Positions 35,985-53,075 of a stretch of DNA of 60,102 nt are shown here, in pieces. A program made the position numbers and the translations under genes. The DNA comes from Candidatus Lloydbacteria bacterium RIFCSPLOWO2_01_FULL_50_20 (lineage in GTDB: Bacteria; Patescibacteriota; Minisyncoccia; Phycocordibacterales; UBA6899): contig MHLP01000037.1 in NCBI GenBank assembly GCA_001821435.1, forward strand, positions 1 through 60,102, given 5' to 3'. The notes beneath the pieces are model-generated. The model was not told the origin of the DNA. It saw nothing but the letters and a program-made list of their open reading frames with translations, and ran no database searches. Position 1 is the first letter of the stretch; each line of letters opens with the position of its first letter.

Positions 35985-37264
<1,280 letters not shown>

Positions 37265-37281: not shown

Positions 37282-37485
37282 CTATTTCCTCTCTTTGAAA
37301 AGTCGTTCGTATTTACGTGCCCAATCTGGAGCACTCCACTCGAACAGAGTGAGAGAAAATCTTCCCAACTTTCTGAGAATAACGCAAACCTCAGGCTTGT
37401 CCTTGTTTACTTTCAGCTCCTTCTCGATTTCAGCTACTATCGCGGCGACGGTTCCCGCAGAGGCAAATTCAGAAAACATACCCAT
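37282..37485 (-). CDS. Small hypothetical protein (67 aa)
   Basis: GAGGT SD 5 nt upstream of ATG 37485. Non-repetitive sequence MGMFSEFASAGTVAAIVAEIEKELK... Confidence 0.4.
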   Translation of the reverse strand: MGMFSEFASAGTVAAIVAEIEKELKVNKDKPEVCVILRKLGRFSLTLFEWSAPDWARKYERLFKERK

Positions 37486-37547
37486 CGCTACCTCACTATG
37501 GTTGGTTGTTGAAAGAAAGAAGCATGAGCATTTTGCCTCCATCCGAC

Positions 37548-37576
37548 TTTACAAACGTTAGCATATAGTTTATACT
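37548..37576 (+). promoter_or_regulatory. Promoter TTTACA-N17-TATACT of the uvrB leader
   Basis: -35 at 37548-37553 and -10 at 37571-37576. ATG 37585 lies 8 nt after the -10, so the transcript is leaderless or nearly so. Confidence 0.5.
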
Positions 37577-37584
37577 CTGTCAAC

Positions 37585-37698
37585 ATGTCTGGATTTAAAT
37601 TGAGGTCAGATTGGGCGCCTGCGGGAGACCCCATAGCAAAGCAAGGCTTGCTATGGGGCGAGAAGTGCCTTTTTAATATATTCCTGCATCATGGATAA
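37585..37698 (+). other. 37-codon uORF: diverged copy of UvrB residues 1-15, then the conserved hairpin; stop overlaps the uvrB ATG
   Basis: MSGFKLRSDWAPAGD against UvrB MDKFKLKSDWLPAGD. The uORF TAA at 37696-37698 overlaps ATG 37691 (ATGGATAA). Confidence 0.7.
37629..37658 (+). repeat. Hairpin motif shared with the uvrA leader
   Basis: CCCCATAGCAA-agcaaggc-TTGCTATGGGG (11-bp stem). 26/33 nt identical to 44294-44326. Confidence 0.75.
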
Positions 37699-39739
37699 AT
37701 TTAAATTAAAAAGCGACTGGCTTCCTGCTGGAGATCAACCGAAGGCGATAAAGCAACTCACCGATGGATTGGCAAAAAATATGCGTTACCAGACGCTACT
37801 TGGTGTTACCGGCTCAGGAAAAACCTTCACCGTCGCGAACGTGATACAAGCGGTTCAAAAACCGACGCTGGTCATCGCGCACAATAAAACACTTGCCGCT
37901 CAGCTTGCGCAAGAGTATCGCTCGTTCTTCCCAGACAACGCGGTGCACTATTTTGTTTCATACTACGACTACTATCAGCCAGAAGCGTATCTCCCAACCA
38001 CCGACACCTATATTGAGAAAGATGCACAGATCAACGAAGAGATCGACCGTTTGCGCCATGCGTCGACGCAGGCGCTGCTCTCTCGCCCCGATGTCATCAT
38101 TGTCGCTTCGGTCTCGTGCATTTATGGCCTCGGATCTCCGGACGAATATCTCAAGGTGAATCTGAAACTTTCCGTCGGCGACAGGCTTTCCCGAAATGAC
38201 CTCATCCGTAAGCTCGTGAATGTTTATTTTGACCGCACCAATGCGGATCTGCAGCCAGGAACTTTTCGCGGCATAGGGAATACGCTTGAAGTCATGCCGA
38301 CAGGAGAGGTGATGATCTATCAGATCACCTTCTCGGGAAGCGCGGTCGAGTCGATCCTGAAGATCAATCCGATCACTCGAGCGGTCGTCGGGAATGAAGA
38401 GACCTGTTTTTTCTTTCCGGCGAAGCACTTTATTACACCGGAAACCGAACGCAAACGCGCGGTCGAGGATATCAAAATGGAACTTGCCGAGCGCTTGAAA
38501 GTGCTCGATGGAGAAAAAAAGCTTCTTGAAGTCGAACGCCTCAAGCGCCGCACAAAATATGATATCGCAATGATTGAGGAGGTGGGTTACTGTAGCGGTA
38601 TCGAGAACTATTCACGCCATTTTTCTGGAAAAACGCCTGGTGAGCCGCCGGAGACCCTGCTTTCTTATTTTCCCCACAATGCGAACGGAACACCTGATTT
38701 TCTCACTATTATCGACGAATCGCACGTTACCGTTCCGCAATTGCGCGGGATGTATGCGGGCGATCAGTCGCGCAAAAAAACCCTCGTCGAGCATGGTTTT
38801 CGTCTCCCTTCCGCATGTGACAACCGCCCGCTCACATTTACTGAATGGGAAAAACGCATCGGGGCGGTGATCTTCACTTCGGCGACACCGGCGGATTTCG
38901 AAAGAGCAGTGAGCGAGCAGGTGGTCGAGCAGGTCATTCGCCCGACCGGACTTGTCGACCCTGAGATCGTCGTGCGGCCGGTCGTGCAAAAAGGCGATTA
39001 TTCGGGACAAATCACTGACTTCATTGCTGAGGCGGCGGCAGTTGTCAAAAAAGGAGAACGTATCCTCGTGACGACACTGACTAAAAAAATGGCCGAAGAT
39101 CTTTCCGTATACCTCAAAGAGAAAGGCGTGAAGGCGGAATACCTCCATAGCGATGTGAAGACGATGGATCGCATTCGCATACTTACCGAGTTCCGCAAGG
39201 GCACATTTGACTGTCTTGTGGGCGTCAACCTGCTCCGCGAAGGACTCGATCTCCCCGAAGTTTCTTTAGTCGCAATCCTTGATGCGGACAAAGAAGGATT
39301 TCTCCGCTCCGAAACATCGCTTATTCAGACGATTGGCCGCGCCGCACGCAATGTCGCCGGCCGCGTGCTTCTCTATGCGGACGTGATGACCGGCTCGCTC
39401 TCGGCTGCCATAGGGGAGACCGATCGCCGAAGGAACGTACAGATCGCGTACAATAAAGCCCACGGCATCACTCCGCAGAGTATCCATAAGAAGATTAGGG
39501 ATATTACCGAAGAGCTGGTGTCGACGCATGACAGGGCGCTCAAAGAGCTCTTTTTGCTCGATAAAATGAACTTCATCAAGGATCCGGAAAAGCTTATGAA
39601 GCAAAAAGAAAAAGAAATGCTCGTCGCGGTCAAAGAGCTCGACTTTGAATCCGCGGCGCTCCTCCGTGACGAGATCAAGATGCTCCGGGGTGAGCCTGTA
39701 CATGAGCACAGCAACTCGAAACCGCGAAAAAGACGTTAG
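37691..39739 (+). CDS. uvrB: Excinuclease ABC subunit B
   Basis: GDQPKAIKQL, GVTGSGKTF, FVSYYDYYQPEAY, helicase motifs and the C-terminal UVR domain FESAALLRDEI. Confidence 0.95.
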   Translation: MDKFKLKSDWLPAGDQPKAIKQLTDGLAKNMRYQTLLGVTGSGKTFTVANVIQAVQKPTLVIAHNKTLAAQLAQEYRSFFPDNAVHYFVSYYDYYQPEAYLPTTDTYIEKDAQINEEIDRLRHASTQALLSRPDVIIVASVSCIYGLGSPDEYLKVNLKLSVGDRLSRNDLIRKLVNVYFDRTNADLQPGTFRGIGNTLEVMPTGEVMIYQITFSGSAVESILKINPITRAVVGNEETCFFFPAKHFITPETERKRAVEDIKMELAERLKVLDGEKKLLEVERLKRRTKYDIAMIEEVGYCSGIENYSRHFSGKTPGEPPETLLSYFPHNANGTPDFLTIIDESHVTVPQLRGMYAGDQSRKKTLVEHGFRLPSACDNRPLTFTEWEKRIGAVIFTSATPADFERAVSEQVVEQVIRPTGLVDPEIVVRPVVQKGDYSGQITDFIAEAAAVVKKGERILVTTLTKKMAEDLSVYLKEKGVKAEYLHSDVKTMDRIRILTEFRKGTFDCLVGVNLLREGLDLPEVSLVAILDADKEGFLRSETSLIQTIGRAARNVAGRVLLYADVMTGSLSAAIGETDRRRNVQIAYNKAHGITPQSIHKKIRDITEELVSTHDRALKELFLLDKMNFIKDPEKLMKQKEKEMLVAVKELDFESAALLRDEIKMLRGEPVHEHSNSKPRKRR

Positions 39740-39793
39740 CGCCGGTATTTGTTCCTTTCGGGCAGGGCATTCAGGTGCTATACTTTTCTTTGT

Positions 39794-41080
39794 ATGTACA
39801 CGGCAAAGTATCAGGACACTCAGCTTTCTTCCGCTGACTGGCTCATCACATTGCGCTGGTATTACGCACCCATTGCTTTTCTCTTGGCATTGTTCATGAG
39901 GGAAGAGACCGGACTGGTGAACGCGGAGTTCATGCTCACTGCATCCTTTGTCGTTGTCTTCGCCGTCAATCTTATTTTTTTCTTTTTGCTTCGGAGTATC
40001 GCAGGAGGAGTATTTTCCCGCGAAGCCATCCAGGCATTGCTTGCCGGACAGATCGTTCTCGATCTCTCGTTTTTCTTTGTCGTTCTACTGACGACCGGAG
40101 GGGGAGCGGAAAGCATCGGTCATTTCTTTTTTCTTTTTCCGATCGCCGTCTCGATGCTTTTTTTCGGACCTGCGGGACTTATTGTTACCGCAGTGCTTTC
40201 CGGCATACTTATTTTTCTTTCTGTGCTATTCAATGCCGGTATGTTCTTGCAGGCAGGTGTTATCACCATTGATCCGATATTTACCCCCGTGCTTCTCCGG
40301 GCACTTGTCGAGAGTGGGATCATCTCGTTTCTCTACCTTTTTGGAGGATTATTTGCGATCTCCTTGTTCCAACAGTTGAGAAGTCACGATGTTGCTCTTC
40401 TTAGTGCGATCACGGATATGGTGCATCAGTTGCGCACCCCGCTTTCAGGGCTGAAATGGACGTTTAAGATCCTTTTGGATGAAGATGCGGGAAAAGATAC
40501 GGAAGAAGAACGGGAACTGCTTGCTAAGGGTTCTGCTGCGAATGAGCGTATGATCACGCTGGTGAATGACGTCCTTGCCGTCGCCCGCCTTGAATCGGGT
40601 AAATTTACGTACCATTTTATTCCCGTTCATATCGAGCTCTTGATCGAAGAGACGATCAAGAGCCTTGCTCTTGTTGCAGAAGCGAAAGAGATCCGTCTGA
40701 ATTTTGTCGCACCGAAGCATCCATTGCCTGAATGGAAAGTTGATCCCGAGAAAATGCGCGATGTGCTCCAGAATCTTATCAGCAACGCGATCAAATACAC
40801 GCGGGTGAAAGATGCGATCACGCTCAACGCAGAGGTTAAGGAAAATCACTTGCATATACAAGTCGAGGACAATGGCATTGGTATCTCCGATACGGCGACA
40901 AAGAAGATCTTCACTCGCTTTTTCCGCGCAGAAAACGCCATAGCAGTCGAAGCGGACGGATCCGGCCTCGGTCTTTTTATTGCGCAGAATATCGTTCATG
41001 CCCATCACGGAAAGATCTGGTTCGAGCATGCTGCTTCAGGTGGGACAGTGTTCCACGTGCTTCTCCCTAAAAGGCCGTAA
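39794..41080 (+). CDS. Membrane sensor histidine kinase
   Basis: About 6 N-terminal TM helices. H-box MVHQLRTPLSGL. N-box NLISNAIKYT. G-box GSGLGLFIAQ. Confidence 0.85.
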   Translation: MYTAKYQDTQLSSADWLITLRWYYAPIAFLLALFMREETGLVNAEFMLTASFVVVFAVNLIFFFLLRSIAGGVFSREAIQALLAGQIVLDLSFFFVVLLTTGGGAESIGHFFFLFPIAVSMLFFGPAGLIVTAVLSGILIFLSVLFNAGMFLQAGVITIDPIFTPVLLRALVESGIISFLYLFGGLFAISLFQQLRSHDVALLSAITDMVHQLRTPLSGLKWTFKILLDEDAGKDTEEERELLAKGSAANERMITLVNDVLAVARLESGKFTYHFIPVHIELLIEETIKSLALVAEAKEIRLNFVAPKHPLPEWKVDPEKMRDVLQNLISNAIKYTRVKDAITLNAEVKENHLHIQVEDNGIGISDTATKKIFTRFFRAENAIAVEADGSGLGLFIAQNIVHAHHGKIWFEHAASGGTVFHVLLPKRP

Positions 41081-41105
41081 CGTATTGTGCTATACTCGTT
41101 TTCAT

Positions 41106-41915
41106 ATGCAGACTGCCGGCGCAAAAAGGATCCTCATCGTTTCAAATGACGAGGCGCTCACCAAAGCGCTCCCCGAATTTCTCACTCAATCCGGATATGA
41201 GCCGTTCACTACCTCGGAAATTATAACGGCGAGTACGGAATTTGAACGACTGCACCCTCATTTGGTGATCCTCGATCTCGGAAAAGAGACCCAGCATGCA
41301 ATGCATTTCCTTGAAACCATCCGCGCCAACCCCAACCGCCACATGGCTCAAATACCCGTATTGATCGGATCGGAGAATGGGAATCTCTTAGATATCAGCT
41401 GCGCTCTCAAACTTGGAGCGAAGGAATATTTTATTAAAAGATCTTCCCTGCCTGCGGATATATTGAAAAAAGCAGAGAAGTGCTTCGGAGACGCGAATGG
41501 CATGACTAATGTTCTTTCTGCAAAAGTACTTATGGTGGAAGATGACAAATTCCTCCGTGAGCTTGCCATACAGAAATTCACCAAAGAGGGGATGAAGACC
41601 ATTGCTGCGATGGACGGCGAACAGGCGGTTATGCTGGCCGAAAAAGAGCTTCCCGATATCATTCTCCTCGATATTTTGCTTCCCGGTATCGATGGTTTTG
41701 AAGCACTGAAGCGCATACGCGCGAATGCTGCGCTTCTCAAAACTCCCGTATTTATGCTTTCAAATTTCGGGCAAGCGGAAGATATCGCAAGGGCGAAAGA
41801 ACTTGGCGTGGATCAATTTCTAGTAAAGGCAAATTACACGCTGGATGAGATCGTCGTTATGGTGCGCGAAAGTCTGGCAAAGGTGAAAGCGTCTCCTCAG
41901 CGCCTATCCTCATAA
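41106..41915 (+). CDS. Response regulator with two receiver domains and no output domain
   Basis: REC1: RILIVSNDEA...LVILDL. REC2: KVLMVEDDKF...IILLDILLPGIDG...FMLSN...K. Confidence 0.8.
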   Translation: MQTAGAKRILIVSNDEALTKALPEFLTQSGYEPFTTSEIITASTEFERLHPHLVILDLGKETQHAMHFLETIRANPNRHMAQIPVLIGSENGNLLDISCALKLGAKEYFIKRSSLPADILKKAEKCFGDANGMTNVLSAKVLMVEDDKFLRELAIQKFTKEGMKTIAAMDGEQAVMLAEKELPDIILLDILLPGIDGFEALKRIRANAALLKTPVFMLSNFGQAEDIARAKELGVDQFLVKANYTLDEIVVMVRESLAKVKASPQRLSS

Positions 41916-41965
41916 TCACCGGAACATGAAAATAGCCAATACTCCTTTGACAAATCACCTGCAAG

Positions 41966-42409
41966 GTGGAATATAAGGTAAGGTGTCGTTTTCAATTTTA
42001 TAAAGGAAATGCCGTGTGCCCCCAAAAGGTTCCTCCATTTCTGCCGGAACATGAGGCCACTGCTCTCGTAAGAAGCATGGTGCGAGAGAACTTCATGCGC
42101 TCACTTTCCGTCGGTTTCATCAAAAAATACGCTGGTCATCCGAGCGTGATCGCATTGACCGATCTCAAGCGTTGGAAAACGCGTTTCGAAGAGATGGTCG
42201 AAGGGTTTACCCCGGAAGAAAAAATACATACGCTGCGCATGATCGCGACTTTTATCCAGTATTGGGATACTCTTTCCAAAAAGGAGCGGAGTATCGCCGC
42301 ACACGAGATTGCGGTTGCGCTTATCGCCAAGCAAAGGGCCACCAACGTGCTCAAAGAAATGGCCGCTGACCCGAACGCGTATCTGCCCGTTTCAACGACT
42401 CTTCAATAG
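41966..42409 (+). CDS. Hypothetical protein (start uncertain)
   Basis: GTG-start ORF with alternative ATG at 42077. No motif recognised. Confidence 0.35.
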   Translation: MEYKVRCRFQFYKGNAVCPQKVPPFLPEHEATALVRSMVRENFMRSLSVGFIKKYAGHPSVIALTDLKRWKTRFEEMVEGFTPEEKIHTLRMIATFIQYWDTLSKKERSIAAHEIAVALIAKQRATNVLKEMAADPNAYLPVSTTLQ

Positions 42410-42421
42410 GGTCAACTGTAG

Positions 42422-42451
42422 CCGCTCCTCTTTTTTGCAGGGGCGGTTTTT
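42422..42451 (+). terminator. Rho-independent terminator
   Basis: ccgctcct / aggggcgg stem followed by ttttt. Confidence 0.6.
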
Positions 42452-42506
42452 CTTGCGGCGTTGTAGTGTGCTTTTCATTTTTGCAATAAGTAGTAGAGTC
42501 TACTAT

Positions 42507-43601
42507 ATGTCAGAGCGATTTTCTGTAATGAAAGTGCTCTATCGGTCGGTATTGAAGCCGGTGCTTTTTAGGTTAACGACACCCGATACCGCGCACGACA
42601 TCTTTGTCGCTGTCGGAGAATTTGCGGGGAAATATGCGATCTTGCGGGCTCTGGTGTCATTTTTTTATGAATACAAAGGGAAAAATATCTCGAAAGTTGT
42701 CGACGGCATCACCTACCGTACGCCGATCCTGCTTTCGGCGGGTTTTGACAGCAACGGCAGGCTGACGAGAATATTGCGCTCAATGTCTTTTGGCGGCGAG
42801 GAGATCGGCTCCACGACTGCAAAACTGTGCGAAGGGAATCCGCTTCCTCGGATGACCCGCCTCGTTCGCAATAAAAGCATCGTCGTCTATAAGGGTCTGC
42901 GTAACGACGGGGTTGATGCGCTCATTCGCCGCCTCAAACAGACGCCAAGAATACCGGAATATGTTATAGGCGTTTCCATCGCCCGGACGAACAGCAAAGA
43001 AGTGAACAAGACCATCGAGGCCGGCATCGCGGATTATGTCGAGACATTCAAAAAATTGAACGAAGCGAATATCGGCGATTATTATACGATCAATATCTCC
43101 TGCCCGAATTCTTTCGGGGGTGAAACATTCATTGACCCCACATTATTTCCTCGACTTATGGCCGAGCTCTCGAAAGTGAAGTGCACGAAACCCCTCTATA
43201 TAAAGATGCCGATAAATATTCCGTGGAACGATTTCAAGCAACTGCTTGAAACGGCGGATACCTACGGGGTACAGGGAGTTATCATCGGCAATCTCAACAA
43301 GAATTACAAAGATCTCGATCATCCCGAGGATGCGCCCGCCCAGTTTCGCGGGGGACTGTCGGGAAAACCGTGCTTTACGCTTTCGAATGAGCTGATCAAA
43401 AAAACCCGCGCGAAATACGGCAAACGCCTCACGATCATCGGCGTCGGGGGAATTCTCACTCCCGAAGACGCTCTGGAGAAATTTAAAGCAGGAGCCGATC
43501 TTATCCAGATGATCTCAGGCATGATCTTCGGTGATCCTGGAATGATGAAAGCGATCTGCGAAAGATACGCTGAATGGAAATCGCACGCGGTGTCGCAATG
43601 A
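42507..43601 (+). CDS. pyrD: Dihydroorotate dehydrogenase (class 2-like)
   Basis: PILLSAGFDSNG, INISCPNS, GGLSGKP and IIGVGGI motifs. Start trimmed to MSERFSV. Confidence 0.85.
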   Translation: MSERFSVMKVLYRSVLKPVLFRLTTPDTAHDIFVAVGEFAGKYAILRALVSFFYEYKGKNISKVVDGITYRTPILLSAGFDSNGRLTRILRSMSFGGEEIGSTTAKLCEGNPLPRMTRLVRNKSIVVYKGLRNDGVDALIRRLKQTPRIPEYVIGVSIARTNSKEVNKTIEAGIADYVETFKKLNEANIGDYYTINISCPNSFGGETFIDPTLFPRLMAELSKVKCTKPLYIKMPINIPWNDFKQLLETADTYGVQGVIIGNLNKNYKDLDHPEDAPAQFRGGLSGKPCFTLSNELIKKTRAKYGKRLTIIGVGGILTPEDALEKFKAGADLIQMISGMIFGDPGMMKAICERYAEWKSHAVSQ

Positions 43602-43709
43602 CCGCTTTTCGTTTTGACACGCGTGCTTGACGAGATTAAATAAGCATGTTAGTCTTTCCATAGCTTGTAAAGCAGTAAACATTCGTCGACCCAACCTTAG
43701 GAGATTGCA

Positions 43710-44105
43710 ATGGACAACTATTTTCTCTGGACACCAGTATTGTTTATCGTTTGTGCAGTTGTGCTGTTCATCTCAGTTGGCATAGCATCTAACTGGAAGG
43801 AATCTGGCCGCGGCATAGTCGTAACCGCTTTTCTGGTAGGAGTGTTCTGCTTGGTCTTTGGGTTGGTGGCTGTCTACGCGAACGGTAAAGGAAAACCGGT
43901 TGTGATTGAACAAGCACAAGCGTTCAAGAACCAGCGTTTGGTGGTTGGAGAAACCTATACCACTGTGAGTGTGACGGAATATGCTGGAGTGACGTATTAT
44001 ATCCTCAAGGGCAAGGATGGCGTACGCTTCTACTCAAGTAAGGAAGCAGTGCCTAAAAAGTTCATTGTCCAAAAGGATTATGGACTTAGGGAAATTGAGA
44101 ATTGA
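43710..44105 (+). CDS. Hypothetical membrane protein
   Basis: Two TM helices. taggag SD upstream. Confidence 0.55.
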   Translation: MDNYFLWTPVLFIVCAVVLFISVGIASNWKESGRGIVVTAFLVGVFCLVFGLVAVYANGKGKPVVIEQAQAFKNQRLVVGETYTTVSVTEYAGVTYYILKGKDGVRFYSSKEAVPKKFIVQKDYGLREIEN

Positions 44106-44119
44106 GTGAAGCAACCCAA

Positions 44120-44147
44120 CCGCCCACGAGAAGTGGACGGTTTTTTT
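44120..44147 (+). terminator. Rho-independent terminator
   Basis: ccgcccac-gagaa-gtggacgg plus T7. Confidence 0.7.
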
Positions 44148-44188
44148 GTGTAATTAGACTACGTAGTAGAGAATGATAAGAGTAAGAT

Positions 44189-44217
44189 TTGTTATTTTTA
44201 TAAAATTGTGTTACAAT
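44189..44217 (+). promoter_or_regulatory. Promoter TTGTTA-N17-TACAAT of the uvrA leader
   Basis: -35 at 44189-44194 and -10 at 44212-44217 with an upstream TG. uORF ATG at 44232. Confidence 0.5.
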
Positions 44218-44231
44218 CGACCGCTTGCCAT

Positions 44232-44342
44232 ATGATTGAGAAACCACACAAAAGTGAGGAACAGGAGACCATCATCGTCAAAGGCGCTCGCCCCCCGAAG
44301 CAAAGCAGGGCTTGCTACGTGGCAGGCCCACAATCTTTATGA
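44232..44342 (+). other. 36-codon uORF: contains a diverged copy of the UvrA N-terminal IIVKGAR block, then the conserved hairpin; stop overlaps the uvrA ATG
   Basis: [20 protein letters not shown] against Uvr[20 protein letters not shown]. atcatcgtcaaaggcgctcgc against ataattgttaaaggcgctcgt (17/21). ATGA overlap at 44339-44342. Confidence 0.7.
44293..44322 (+). repeat. Hairpin motif shared with the uvrB leader
   Basis: CCCCGAAGCAA-agcagggc-TTGCTACGTGG. One base pair changed compensatorily relative to the uvrB copy (A-U to G-C). Confidence 0.7.
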
Positions 44343-46963
44343 AAGAGCAAAGTAAAATAATTGTTAAAGGCGCTCGTACGCACAATTTGAAGAACATCAC
44401 CGTCACGATGCCACGGAACAAGATGATCGTATTCACCGGACTTTCGGGGTCAGGGAAGTCGTCGCTAGCTTTCGACACGATCTTTGCCGAAGGTCAGCGG
44501 CGTTATGTCGAGTCACTCTCCGCGTACGCGCGGCAGTTCCTCCACCAAATGCAGAAGCCCGACGTCGACGAGATCGTCGGCCTTTCGCCCGCTATTTCCA
44601 TCGATCAGAAATCGCATTCCTCCAACCCGCGTTCGACGGTTGCCACGATCACGGAGATCTACGACTATCTGCGCGTGCTTTTTGCGCGCGTCGGCATCCC
44701 GCACTGCTTGCTCTGCGGAAAGCCGATCAAACGCCTGACCAACGAGGAGATCATGGGGATCGTATTCGATCGCGTCGAAGAGATAGGGAAGCATTCACCA
44801 AAAGATGAGGTCATGGGTGTTCCGTATTCGACGCTCAAGGTGGGGATCTATGCCCCGCTCGTCCGAGGGAGAAAAGGAGAGTATTACCAATTGCTTTATG
44901 ATTATTTGAGCAAGGGCTACAGCAAGGCGCGTATTGACGGAAAGCAAAAAAATCTTCGAGAACAGATCATCCTGGCGAAACAGAAAAAGCACGATGTCGA
45001 TATCTTGGTGGATGAATTTTTTGTTTCCGAATTTCGCGATAACACCAAAGGAGTTCGGGAACGTTTGTCCGAGGCCGTGGAGCGCGCTCTCGGCGAAGCG
45101 GAAGGGCTTGTGCGTCTCGTGATCGGCGATGAAGAAACATTAATGTCCGCAAAGTTCGCGTGTCCCGACGACGGTTTTTCTTATCCTGAGGTAGAGCCGA
45201 GACTTTTTTCATTCAATTCTCCTTACGGTGCCTGTCAAACATGCAACGGGCTCGGAACGAAGCATTTTTTCGGTGATGAGCCGTGCGAGGTCTGCGGCGG
45301 GAAGCGCCTTCGTGAAGAAGCACTCCATGTAACGATTGGCGACCCCGTAGTAGAAGCCAAAAGGGCTTCACTACAGGGCAAGCATAAGAAAACTCAAGAA
45401 TCGCGCGGAAAAAGTATCGTCGAGGTGACCGATATGTCGATCGAGGAAGCAAGCAGATTTTTCGGGGGGTTGACGCTCACTCCTATGGAGCGGCAGATCT
45501 CATCGGTCGTGATCAAGGAGATCGAAAGCCGCCTCAGTTTTATGCTCGACGTCGGGATCGGTTATCTCACGCTCGGACGCCGTGCAAATACGCTTTCTGG
45601 CGGCGAGGCGCAGCGCATACGACTCGCTTCACAGCTTGGCTCACGCCTTGTCGGGGCGCTCTATGTGCTCGATGAGCCGACGATCGGTCTTCATCAGAAA
45701 GATAATGACCGCCTCATCAAAACGCTCCGTAATCTGTGCGACATCGGAAACACGATCATTGTCGTTGAGCATGATGAAGATACGATCTTCGCTTCGGATT
45801 ATCTCGTTGATATCGGTCCAGGCGCCGGCGTGCACGGCGGGCACATTGTTGCCTCCGGCTATCTTGAAGACCTGCTTCTGGATAAAAAAGCAAAATCACT
45901 CACACTTGATTATCTCCGCAAGGATAAGCAAATTCCGCTCCCTGAAAAACGCAGAGTGAAAGACAAGGGGGCGCTGGGGCTGCGCGGCGGAAAGGCATTT
46001 AACATCACGAACATGAACGTGGATATTCCGCTCGGCCGCCTCGTCACGGTTACCGGAGTTTCCGGGTCGGGAAAATCGACCTTTCTTTATGAACTCATAT
46101 ACAAAAATCTGCAGGCGCGTTTCGACCGGCGTTATCGTTCCCCGAAAACCTATAATTGTGCAGAGTTCACCGGAACGGAATATCTGCATCGCGCGATCTT
46201 GATCGACCAGTCGCCGATCGGGCGCACTCCGCGCTCAAATCCCGCGACCTATACCGGAGCATGGACGTTCGTACGTGACCTCTTTGCGGAAACGGAAGAA
46301 GCCCGCGTACGCGGCTGGAGAGCATCGCGATTTTCTTTCAATGTGAAAGGCGGGCGCTGCGAAGCCTGTGAAGGGAACGGCATGGTCGCCGTGGAAATGC
46401 ACTTCCTTCCGACCGTGTATGTCCTTTGCGATGTGTGTCAGGGCAAACGTTTTCAAAAAGAAACACTGGAGGTGAAATTCAAAAAGAAAAATATTTATGA
46501 AGTCCTGAAGATGACCGTCGAGGAGGCCTGCGAGTTCTTTCGCGACATTCCCGCCATCGAAGATCGGCTGAAGACGTTGAACGATGTGGGACTGGGTTAT
46601 TTGGAGCTTGGGCAATCAGCAACAACGCTTTCGGGCGGTGAGGCGCAGCGCGTAAAAATTGCTTCAGAACTCTATCGTCCGTTCCAGCAGCGCACGATCT
46701 ATCTCTTGGATGAGCCGACCATCGGTCTCCACTACGAGGATGTGAAGAAGCTTATTGAGATCCTTCAGGCGCTCGTGGAGAAAGGGAACAGCGTACTCAT
46801 GATCGAGCACAATCTCGATGTGATCAAATCCTCAGACTATGTCATTGACATTGGTCCGGACGGCGGCTCTGGCGGAGGGCAGCTTGTCGCCAGGGGAACA
46901 CCTGAGGAGATCGCGAATAATCCAAAGTCATATACGGGGAAATATTTGAAACGTTCGTTATGA
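44339..46963 (+). CDS. uvrA: Excinuclease ABC subunit A
   Basis: [23 protein letters not shown], zinc-finger Cys pairs, LSGGEAQR twice and two ABC modules. Confidence 0.95.
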
Positions 46964-49347: not shown

Positions 49348-49449
49348 GCTGTCTCGCGGTGATATAAAATATGCCGCCCGTCTATCGCCGCCCTTACCTG
49401 CCTGCCGGCAGGCAGGCGCCCGGGGCATTCTAGGCCACACTAGTAAAAC

Positions 49450-50095: not shown

Positions 50096-50168
50096 GGGCC
50101 CATAGCTCAGTTGGTAGAGCGCTACATTTGCAATGTAGATGTCAGCGGTTCGAATCCGCTTGGGTCCA
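50096..50168 (+). tRNA. tRNA-Ala(UGC), 3' CCA not encoded at this end
   Basis: Cloverleaf by hand: acceptor gggccca/tgggtcc with G3:U70, anticodon arm ctaca-ttTGCaa-tgtag, T arm agcgg-ttcgaat-ccgct. Confidence 0.9.
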
Positions 50169-50340
50169 CAACGAGTCTGCGAGGTGGGGAACCGAGGAGT
50201 GAGCTGCTTCACTCCGGGGCGGATTCGAAAGGGTTTTCATTATCGAGCGACCAATTTTTCTTAGCGGTACTCCGCTTAGAAAAGTGGAAGTGCCCGTAGT
50301 GGTGTCTTCGAGATTGAAAACCACCCGTTGCGGTAGGCAA

Positions 50341-50361
50341 CGAATCCGCTTGGGTCCACCA
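50341..50361 (+). repeat. Second copy of the tRNA-Ala(UGC) 3' end (19-nt perfect direct repeat), here with encoded CCA
   Basis: cgaatccgcttgggtccac at 50151-50169 and again at 50341-50359. The second copy continues as CCA. Confidence 0.85.
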
Positions 50362-50412
50362 AGCGAAATATCGAGCTATATTATTCAGTAACAAGATCGA
50401 AAATGACTCAGC

Positions 50413-52691: not shown

Positions 52692-52913
52692 AACGATTAT
52701 AATTAAATAGTTATAAATTATTAATGTAGTGGACAAGCTAAGGGTTAAATAAATATACAGCTTCGATTAGTGGCGGAAACATATTATCATACACCGTCAC
52801 TATGAAATTTCTCTGAAGCGGAATATTTCTTTGCATATTGGCATATTTTTGCTATATTTCTTGAGTTCTTGAGGAGGGCCCGTAGCTCATCTGGTAGAGC
52901 GCGTCATTTTCAC

Positions 52914-53020
52914 CCTGTTAGACATAGGCCATGCGGGCCTATCGTATAGTGGTAGTACACGGCATTCGCATTGCCGGGACGCCAGTTCGATTCTGGCTAG
53001 GTCCACCAATGTCTAACAGG
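52914..53020. repeat. 107-nt insert bounded by a perfect 12-bp inverted repeat
   Basis: CCTGTTAGACAT (52914-52925) is the reverse complement of ATGTCTAACAGG (53009-53020). Confidence 0.85.
52935..53008 (+). tRNA. tRNA-Ala(CGC) with encoded CCA, nested inside the interrupted tRNA
   Basis: Acceptor gggccta/taggtcc with G3:U70, D arm gtat-agtggta-gtac, anticodon arm cggca-ttCGCat-tgccg, T arm gccag-ttcgatt-ctggc, then ACCA. Confidence 0.85.
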
Positions 53021-53075
53021 GCGGGTTGACGAGGCAAGCGGTTCGAGTCCGCTTGGGTCCACAAAAGACACAAAC

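Follow-up and report, generated by a model that had tools for sequence, protein, structure and literature searches.

Why should a gene begin twice? The question is raised by the excision-repair gene uvrB (37691..39739, + strand; 682 aa) in contig MHLP01000037.1 of Candidatus Lloydbacteria bacterium RIFCSPLOWO2_01_FULL_50_20, where the gene is preceded by a short reading frame that opens as a diverged copy of the UvrB N-terminus. The whole stretch of DNA that was analysed, 60,102 nt, is referred to below as the window. The encoded UvrB is 100% identical to the protein of Candidatus Lloydbacteria bacterium RIFCSPHIGHO2_02_FULL_50_11, a member of the Parcubacteria within the candidate phyla radiation (CPR). 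A sequence-only reading had taken one of the two uvrB 5' ends to be probably foreign; the comparisons reported here point to a portable palindromic element, termed element E, that lies between the two copies and recurs at other genes. The account that we favour, with a probability of about 0.55, is that E is an insert similar to Rickettsia palindromic elements (RPEs) and MITEs (transposable elements of the miniature inverted-repeat kind), tolerated through duplication of a compact leaderless start, with coupled expression and turnover.

Upstream of uvrB, ATG 37585 (ATG1) opens an upstream open reading frame (uORF; 37585..37698, + strand) of 37 codons, MSGFKLRSDWAPAGD|PIAKQGLLWGEKCLFNIFLHHG. 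Its first 15 codons, MSGFKLRSDWAPAGD (37585..37629), constitute the upstream copy. They share 11/15 aa and 29/45 nt with the downstream copy MDKFKLKSDWLPAGD (37691..37735), that is, the functional start (ATG2, 37691) and the first 15 codons of uvrB, and a TCA/AGC serine switch is present between the two. The best 10-aa BLOSUM62 window of this duplication scores 49, a value reached by 0/2000 shuffles. Similarity breaks off after GD, between D and Q of the PAGDQP segment of UvrB, and from there the uORF reads through E to a TAA at 37696-98, which lies 8 nt into uvrB and overlaps ATG2. At this locus E consists of a hairpin, CCCCATAGCAA-AGCAAGGC-TTGCTATGGGG (37629..37658), followed by a tail, CGAGAAGTGCCT (37659..37670). 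The hairpin has 11+2 pairs, with a folding energy of -19.2 kcal/mol alone and -21.4 kcal/mol (z = -3.2) with its flanks. The uORF, both identity counts, the serine switch, the limit after GD, the hairpin, the promoter site and the overlapping stop had all been described from the sequence alone, and all were reproduced.

The promoter in question, P1 (TTTACA-N17-TATACT; 37548..37576, + strand), is sigma-70-like, matches 10/12 promoter positions and has a -10 box that ends 8 nt before ATG1, a geometry shared by insert-free relatives. A second -10-like box, TATATT (37677..37682), stands in the spacer 8 nt before ATG2. The two regions, TATACT-ctgtcaac-ATG and TATATT-cctgcatc-ATG, have the same box-to-ATG gap (8 nt), and the spacer box is probably a duplicated copy of the P1 -10 box. 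It fits the leaderless geometry of the window genes but has no -35 box. A second, directly leaderless uvrB transcript from this putative promoter, P2, is possible. Since -10-like hexamers occur 6-8 nt before the start of several window genes, and a recognisable Shine-Dalgarno (SD) sequence at the usual distance was found for only ~3/44 long ORFs in the window, a second uvrB promoter is a live alternative. Leaderless or SD-independent initiation appears to be the norm in this genome. The earlier remark that the uvrB ATG has no SD is therefore correct but not distinctive, as most window genes are without one. An intrinsic terminator was not found at uvrB: the main hairpin is followed by CGAGAAGTGCC, without an adjacent U-tract, and the only terminator flag is a weak 6-pair secondary stem with T5 at 37655-37671.

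Loci of close UvrB relatives (L numbers; their proteins carry P numbers) were gathered by exact-protein contig look-ups. Unsplit uvrB alleles, P0005 (L081-83), P0007 (L084-86), P0003 (L090-92) and P0010 (L093), show a -10 box, 7-9 nt and ATG-TCN-GGN, giving MSGFKL... or MSAFKL..., with no insert. Split alleles besides that of the window are P0008 (L087, an NCBI metagenome-assembled genome) and P0004 (L088 and L089, two independent assemblies with identical junctions). In these the order is upstream copy, CCCC-initial hairpin, invariant GGGGCGAGAAGTGCCT, A+T-rich spacer and ATG-(G/A)AT-AAA-TTT. The upstream copy of the window matches the N-termini of the unsplit relatives, with mostly synonymous changes. 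Because insert-free relatives carry its promoter and start directly, we read it as the ancestral leaderless uvrB start, which supports the earlier proposal that a native start was displaced by an insert supplying the hairpin and a replacement start. The comparison with relatives also showed that the split arrangement is conserved in L087, L088 and L089. The overlap of stop and start, by contrast, holds for uvrB in the window and is not conserved as such, the L087 uORF stopping 14 nt before the ATG. No E-type hairpin was present among 80 unrelated uvrB loci. A scan with full-length UvrB, which served as negative control and was dominated by universal UvrB motifs, retrieved distant genes only (<=68% identity), none with the motif or the duplication.

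The genome was assembled from a metagenome, and groundwater samples of this origin contain coexisting related strains, so an assembler might have joined two strain variants of the uvrB 5' end. This is hardly credible here. The same split layout occurs in L087 and, with identical junctions, in the separate assemblies L088 and L089, which argues against an artefact. It is also found at two genes of the window, and the intervening hairpin is the sequence of neither variant and has family members elsewhere.

The second of these genes is uvrA (44339..46963, + strand; 874 aa counted from its own ATG2), and the statement that it shares the uvrB architecture proved accurate. Its ATG1 (44232) opens a uORF of 36 codons (44232..44342, + strand), the TGA of which overlaps ATG2 (44339) as ATGA. 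The first 20 codons encode a 'long-type' UvrA N-terminus with homology to uvrA at 44259-44291, the offset between copies being 86 nt; the best 10-aa BLOSUM62 window scores 36 (reached by 0/2000 shuffles). P1 of uvrA (TTGTTA-N17-TACAAT, with a TG extension; 44189..44217, + strand) leaves a very short leader of 14 nt before ATG1, compared with 9-11 nt in relatives. E (44292..44328, + strand) is represented by an imperfect hairpin, CCCCCGAAGCAAAGCAGGGCTTGCTACGTGG, and a shortened tail, CAGGCC. A 19-nt hairpin core, AGCAAAGCARGGCTTGCTA, is common to the uvrB and uvrA inserts and found nowhere else in the window (chance expectation 0). The P1 -10 region of uvrA, TACAATCG, resembles the spacer CACAATCT before ATG2, and CACAATCTTT (44329..44338, + strand), 4 nt from ATG2, is probably a copy of it. 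An internal promoter at this site was rejected, as CACAAT is merely 4 nt from ATG2, too close for a leaderless promoter. No terminator was flagged on the + strand at uvrA, and no window gene besides uvrB and uvrA has an upstream copy of its own N-terminus.

Relatives provide a series of uvrA states. In L096 and L104, which have no E, the promoter lies directly before ATG-AAA-GAA. A short remnant is seen in L102 and L103, where E follows 3 upstream codons (MAD or MTD), and a long one in the window, where it follows 20 codons. L094 (P0216) and L095 (P0206) contain, at the DNA level, an in-frame E without a second start; the flanking copies in L095 are 27/30 identical. A protein search for in-frame E-bearing UvrA N-termini retrieved mostly short fragments, with P0241 as the sole new case, known from the protein only. 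Such in-frame inserts give UvrA an N-terminal extension made up of the old N-terminus, an E-encoded linker and the new N-terminus. The inserts of L094, L095, L102 and L103 are homologous to that of the window. Separately, E at uvrA in L102 (519-616) is triplicated internally (GTAAGCCCACTA x3), and the spacer before ATG2 holds CCTCCTAAC twice, a sequence that resembles the 16S rRNA 3' end itself and not an SD.

In element E, a CCCC...GGGG hairpin, variable in its interior, precedes the tail C(G/A)AG(A/G)AAG(TG)CC, the whole measuring ~40-55 nt. The hairpins measure 30-48 nt and -15 to -26 kcal/mol, their CCCC/GGGG ends being conserved; members of the uvrB hairpin family occur in L087, L088, L094, L097, L100, L102 and L103. 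The tail is invariant across the uvrB inserts despite their differing reading frames, and is identical in L087, in L088, at the methionine aminopeptidase gene map (L100) and at secF (L097). As it is read in different uORF frames, the constraint lies on nucleotides. The uvrA tails are shortened or variant (GGGGCAGGCC in the window, GGGGCAAGGAAGCC in L103) and link both tail forms. When E copies were aligned with MAFFT, the variable stem came out too badly to support a covariance model, and hairpin and pattern scans took its place. Rfam 15 contained no family matching the hairpin or leader over 37400-44500, at gathering thresholds or at E<=10.

Metagenome sequences were scanned for the invariant tail of E, with 5 loci retrieved; tail matches in L098, L099 and L101 were discarded as chance matches in G+C-rich genes. 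In L100, hairpin and tail are located at the 5' end of map (...TATAAAaaatATGTCAGTAATTATAAA|CCCCGAAGG...CCTACGGGGCGAGAAGTGCCT...TATAAAacgacATGTCAGTTATTATAAAAACT...), and the duplicated segment covers the ATG, 5 codons and, unambiguously, the -10 box TATAAA. In L097, E lies in reverse orientation against the secF stop codon; behind it the last ~14 SecF codons appear a second time, with a third C-terminal copy past a 112-aa ORF. This region (2180-2900, - strand) thus holds three secF end copies in a row, parted by E and by the 112-aa ORF, which is of coiled-coil type and has a TGTATAAT promoter of its own. The layout suggests nested insertions at one gene end. In L087, hairpins that share the outer stem (CCCCG[AT]AGTA...CTACTACGGGG) stand in terminator positions next to T-runs; the family members in L087 and L097 are intergenic, with adjacent T-runs. 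The 60-kb window contains 2 copies, 10 kb of L087 at least 3 family members, and across lineages copies occur at 5 different genes. That E is a portable palindromic element family is largely shown by these comparisons. The sequence-only proposal of a one-off foreign 5' end at uvrB does not stand, since the insert belongs to a family also found at map, secF and tgt.

A duplicated gene end usually flanks E, the intact gene lying towards the tail; in all four genes that show such a duplication, a remnant copy comes first, then E from hairpin to tail, then the intact gene. The duplications extend over ~17 to 60 nt (map ~37, uvrB at least 45, uvrA of L095 30-42 and secF ~45). E is similar to MITEs in being small, hairpin-forming and non-coding with terminal inverted repeats, but does not show a short target-site duplication of fixed length. 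Several other roles were considered and rejected. For a dimeric repressor operator, which would need a conserved half-site for protein binding, hairpin sequence and length vary too much among close relatives while pairing is kept; an intrinsic terminator in sense orientation at uvrB or uvrA lacks a U-tract adjoining the hairpin; and the tail, inspected by eye on its reverse strand for a sigma-54 promoter, does not have the right spacing.

The closest known counterparts are RPEs, which are intragenic and often translated in frame (review PMC10969869). Like them, E is small, non-coding, hairpin-forming and tolerated in protein genes, and the in-frame copies at uvrA (L094, L095, P0241) and the palindromes of the tgt linker described below would be translated as extra peptide. 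Unlike them, E is located at gene ends, has a long and variable gene-end duplication (~17 to 60 nt) on its flanks with no short fixed target duplication, and has no known parent insertion sequence. Most E copies at uvrA and uvrB, including both in the window, break the frame and depend on a second start codon for rescue; the insert keeps the frame only in L094, L095, P0241 and the tgt linker of relatives. SPRITE and REP are terminator-like palindromic repeats (PMC10969869), with which the intergenic E members of L087 and L097 share T-runs and a genome-specific hairpin sequence. At uvrB and uvrA, in contrast, the hairpin lies inside a translated leader, in sense orientation and without an adjacent U-tract. 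What distinguishes E is its long gene-specific duplications, its preference for gene termini and the rescue by a duplicated leaderless start.

In the account that we favour, E would be copied into a gene end together with a re-copied stretch of the target, for example through a replication template switch at the hairpin, and insertions would survive only where the duplication restored a complete start or, at 3' ends, a complete stop. As promoter, start and first codons fit into ~40-60 nt, one short duplication can rebuild a complete start. The resulting layout at uvrB and uvrA is largely shown: a duplicated stretch of the start module (-10 box, 7-9 nt, ATG and the first 15-20 codons) is present on both sides of E. 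The hairpin-side copy, the ancestral start, is now a short, apparently leaderless uORF reading into E, and the tail-side copy, with its own ATG and joined to the gene body, makes the protein. P1 transcripts are predicted to be leaderless, with the -10 box ending 8 nt (uvrB) and 14 nt (uvrA) before ATG1, and would begin at or near ATG1. On these, 70S ribosomes could read the uORF and open up the hairpin on the way, to terminate only a few nucleotides from ATG2 (8-nt overlap at uvrB, 4-nt at uvrA) and reinitiate there. Later loss of the insert by recombination between the copies would return the upstream copy to service.

The frame of the inserts is informative in this respect. ATG1 and ATG2 are 106 nt apart at uvrB and 107 nt apart at uvrA, so that both window inserts shift the frame. 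ATG2 is present in 6/6 out-of-frame inserts and absent from the in-frame L094 and L095, and the uORF stays open through E in all six out-of-frame loci. Its stop codon differs between lineages and is located -8, +14 and -4 nt from ATG2 at uvrB and -4, +5 and +4 nt at uvrA; in the window and in relatives, both genes thus have the uORF stop within ~14 nt of the start, as expected of coupled pairs. Termination-reinitiation coupling works at overlaps of -4, -1 and -8 nt in E. coli and Haloferax volcanii (PMC10666635; PMC6728339), these being common overlap classes (PMC10666635), and falls by 40-80% at ~+14 nt, to be lost beyond ~20-38 nt (PMC10666635). The observed distances all lie within the permissive range. 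The ATGA at uvrA and the 8-nt overlap at uvrB resemble such coupled pairs (PMC6728339; PMC10666635). The earlier suggestion of termination-reinitiation is plausible on this evidence, its argument from the missing SD being weak. At uvrA of L102 and L103 neither an SD nor a credible second promoter is present, and uvrA must therefore be translated there from P1 transcripts.

Leaderless short ORFs also head polycistronic mRNAs in mycobacteria (PMC4633059; bioRxiv 10.1101/834739). As there, a 5'-terminal AUG would open a short ORF that ends at the start of the main gene. The difference is that the uORF described here is the gene's own former N-terminus fused to a repeat, with coupling deduced from its layout, and that mycobacterial ORFs sense amino-acid supply by codon content, nothing comparable being evident at uvrB or uvrA.

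A different way to use the upstream copy would be recoding, in which ribosomes bypass the insert, taking off from the Asp (GAC) or Arg (CGC) codon before the hairpin and landing on its match 106 or 86 nt further downstream, or the intervening RNA is excised. Bypassing in T4 gene 60 involves a hairpin at a codon with a matching downstream codon and an untranslated gap of ~50-100 nt. Here too the hairpin starts at the take-off codon, the codons match (GAC/GAU, CGC/CGU), the gap is of similar size, and removal of 106 or 86 nt would fuse the copies in frame. Recoding would also explain directly the amino-acid-level, coding-type conservation of the upstream copies. We nevertheless consider it very improbable. 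Hopping or splicing would make frame irrelevant, yet every out-of-frame insert has ATG2 and the loci without it, L094 and L095, are in frame; L102 and L103 keep only 3 upstream codons, with no matching landing codon. On these two grounds bypassing and splicing were rejected, and ordinary translation with coupling is indicated. Unlike in T4 gene 60, no stop follows the putative take-off codon (CCC follows); no intron or ribozyme family was matched, even at a permissive threshold, and matched codons are an automatic result of duplication. A programmed frameshift from the uORF into uvrB was likewise rejected: a TAG lies at 37634-36, the main frame is open only from 37637, and no slippery site is conserved.

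The divergence of the copies bears on how the split state arose. Split and unsplit alleles intermingle in a UvrB tree that leaves out the first 20 residues: split P0008 lies beside unsplit P0005 (91% identity), and split P0001 beside unsplit P0003 (88%). Neither stops nor indels occur in the upstream copies, which have the look of working N-termini. Among the three split alleles, the downstream copies are mutually closer (0.11-0.13) than the genes overall (0.22-0.25), and divergence past codon 15 is equal for split and unsplit pairs. The unsplit L084 start shows 0/21 nt differences from the L087 upstream copy in its 5' part, and in its 3' part 1/24 nt from the window downstream copy compared with 9-11 from upstream copies. 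It has the form of a clean chimera of the two copies, as repeat recombination would leave. We conclude from these patterns that split and unsplit states can interconvert, with loss by repeat recombination, and that the split allele probably spread by homologous exchange. The claim that both copies diverged while functional is supported by the substitution pattern, but its likeliest cause is turnover, given the L084 chimera and the interspersed tree, and not foreign origin. Turnover would be the most economical reason why both copies look coding and under purifying selection.

Some of these data could also be expected had an imported segment with a replacement uvrB or uvrA start displaced the native fragment, E being what remains of it. 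Prophages and other elements inserted in coding genes can carry a replacement gene end, as do phage 21 and e14 in icd, and site-specific or Campbell-type recombination would be the route. The mainly synonymous differences between copies that both look functional as the element comes and goes, the duplicated gene terminus, the patchy distribution of the split state on the tree and the closer downstream copies (0.11-0.13 against 0.22-0.25), which would fit a horizontally spread cassette, are in agreement with such an origin, and in L097 a 112-aa cargo ORF is flanked by copies of the SecF C-terminus. We regard it as improbable, since the insert is only ~60-70 nt, with no integrase and no cargo at uvrB, uvrA or map, and no attachment core is shared by the junctions of the four target genes, an argument against the action of a single site-specific recombinase. 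Nor is the remainder of uvrB foreign, given the same split/unsplit divergence beyond codon 15. E recurs at different genes, each with its own end duplicated, which requires local target copying, and the 27/30 identical flanks in L095 also lean to local duplication.

Several observations weigh against, or limit, the account that we favour. E lies at both excision-repair genes in a 60-kb window of ~45 genes; this, together with the persistence of a homologous uvrA insert between lineages with UvrA identity of only 72%, fits selection for function better than tolerance. The upstream copies of the three split lineages differ by 17 synonymous and 6 non-synonymous codon changes, where ~24% synonymous would be expected if unconstrained, and they diverge (0.18-0.24) as fast as the gene as a whole (0.20-0.25); the N-terminal peptide of the uORF may have a direct function. 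Stop proximity has a probability of 0.12-0.73 per locus under a shuffled-insert null, and the loci are not independent, so that the pattern is suggestive of coupling and not decisive. Tail conservation in L097 and L100 holds by construction, because both were found by tail search. A template switch is given as an example only of what might yield duplications of ~17 to 60 nt, and classical MITEs make short, fixed ones. No transposase or recombinase was seen in the flanks examined, no genome-wide search having been made. Transcription starts, read-through of E and reinitiation are themselves deduced from sequence.

A regulatory role of E is possible, though unproven, and could take two forms. 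In the first, hairpin and uORF would be a dedicated leader, selected for post-transcriptional control of excision-repair genes: a trans-acting factor, or the stability of the hairpin, would gate uORF ribosomes and hence reinitiation at ATG2 (elongation in the in-frame variants), co-regulating uvrA and uvrB where leaderless mRNAs offer no 5' untranslated region (UTR). Apart from the 72% persistence, this agrees with the restriction of E in the window to uvrA and uvrB with the same hairpin core, with a tail that is invariant though read in different frames, and with uORF stops that stay near ATG2 despite turnover. Pair-preserving differences are found at both genes, AGCAA/TTGCT versus AGGAA/TTCCT in the uvrA hairpin and CCAC/GTGG versus CCAA/TTGG in the uvrB apical stem. 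Since palindrome correction at the DNA level can mimic covariation, however, such compensatory changes are no proof of RNA function. This is relevant because tgt, next to uvrB, keeps perfect palindromes in coding DNA, with arms of 30 nt in L087 and 19 nt in L081 (both 100% complementary) that are homologous to 14-nt arms at 36402-36443 in the window; such correction is therefore at work in this lineage. Palindromic inserts inside coding DNA are, as the tgt linker shows, a general trait of the lineage. E also occurs at map, secF, tgt and terminator positions and is not repair-specific, many close relatives have lost it at uvrB and uvrA, and neither an Rfam match nor a candidate regulator was identified. 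The dedicated leader consequently seems doubtful, if worth keeping in mind.

In the second form, which we hold to be unlikely, E and the spare start would be a reversible control cassette for the excision-repair genes of Parcubacteria. The split state would gate UvrA and UvrB synthesis through a hairpin that uORF ribosomes must melt, and recombination between the N-terminal copies would restore direct leaderless expression. Selection would keep both copies coding-competent, and E would co-evolve between uvrA and uvrB within a genome.

If E is a tolerated palindromic insert, as we favour, a gene without a 5' UTR can survive, and perhaps exploit, an insertion at its very start, the old start becoming a uORF. 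The comparisons also define a portable hairpin element of the CPR that marks gene ends with terminal duplications. For annotation, they mean that gene callers will misplace starts: the ORF listing of the window starts uvrA at TTG 44312, and some relatives are called with long false N-terminal extensions. Should E act as a gate on uvrA and uvrB translation, it would offer a first access to repair-gene control in this lineage, for which, to our knowledge, no DNA-damage response has been described.

Other repeats and interrupted genes were observed in the window and its relatives. The window tgt (36037-37264) is split into ORFs of 126 and 268 aa exactly at its palindrome, CAACGTCCGACCTT-N14-AAGGTCGGACGTTG, beside a C7 run. 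Relatives have an intact TGT, in which a hypervariable linker is a perfect in-frame palindrome (L087 2612-2685; L081 2171-2209). The break may reflect a true frameshift, translation restarting at ATG 36458 or an error in sequencing the homopolymer. In L094 (6110-7410), uvrC, downstream of the E-bearing uvrA, is called as ORFs of 214 and 219 aa with a 4-nt overlap, and is perhaps a further case of an interrupted repair gene. L087 (2165-2200 and 6308-6345) has a second palindrome family, CCCCAGCACTTAC...GTAAGTGCTGGGG, with 16-bp perfect stems. Its members lie directly against the -10 boxes (TATAGT, TATACT) of the tgt and FIST-domain genes, which appear to be leaderless, and might act as operators or as terminator-promoter modules. 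Long G+C-rich hairpins that resemble each other, CCTGCCTGC...GCAGGCAGG and then GGGGCATTCT, at 49377-49424 of the window and 8512-8551 of L096 suggest a further conserved palindrome family of Lloydbacteria.

Two tRNA loci of the window also contain inserts. A tRNA-Ala-like gene (52876-53065) is interrupted after the anticodon loop, its 5' half lying at 52876-52912, with a loop TTTTCAC that would read as anticodon TTC, and its 3' half at 53029-53065. The interruption of ~117 nt is bounded by a 13-bp inverted repeat (CCCTGTTAGACAT/ATGTCTAACAGGG) and contains a complete tRNA-Ala(CGC) (52935-53008), which is thus nested inside another tRNA gene. About 170 nt beyond tRNA-Ala(TGC) (50096-50169) there is a second copy of its 3' end, CGAATCCGCTTGGGTCCACCAA (50341-50362), so that a duplicated terminus flanks an insert here as well.

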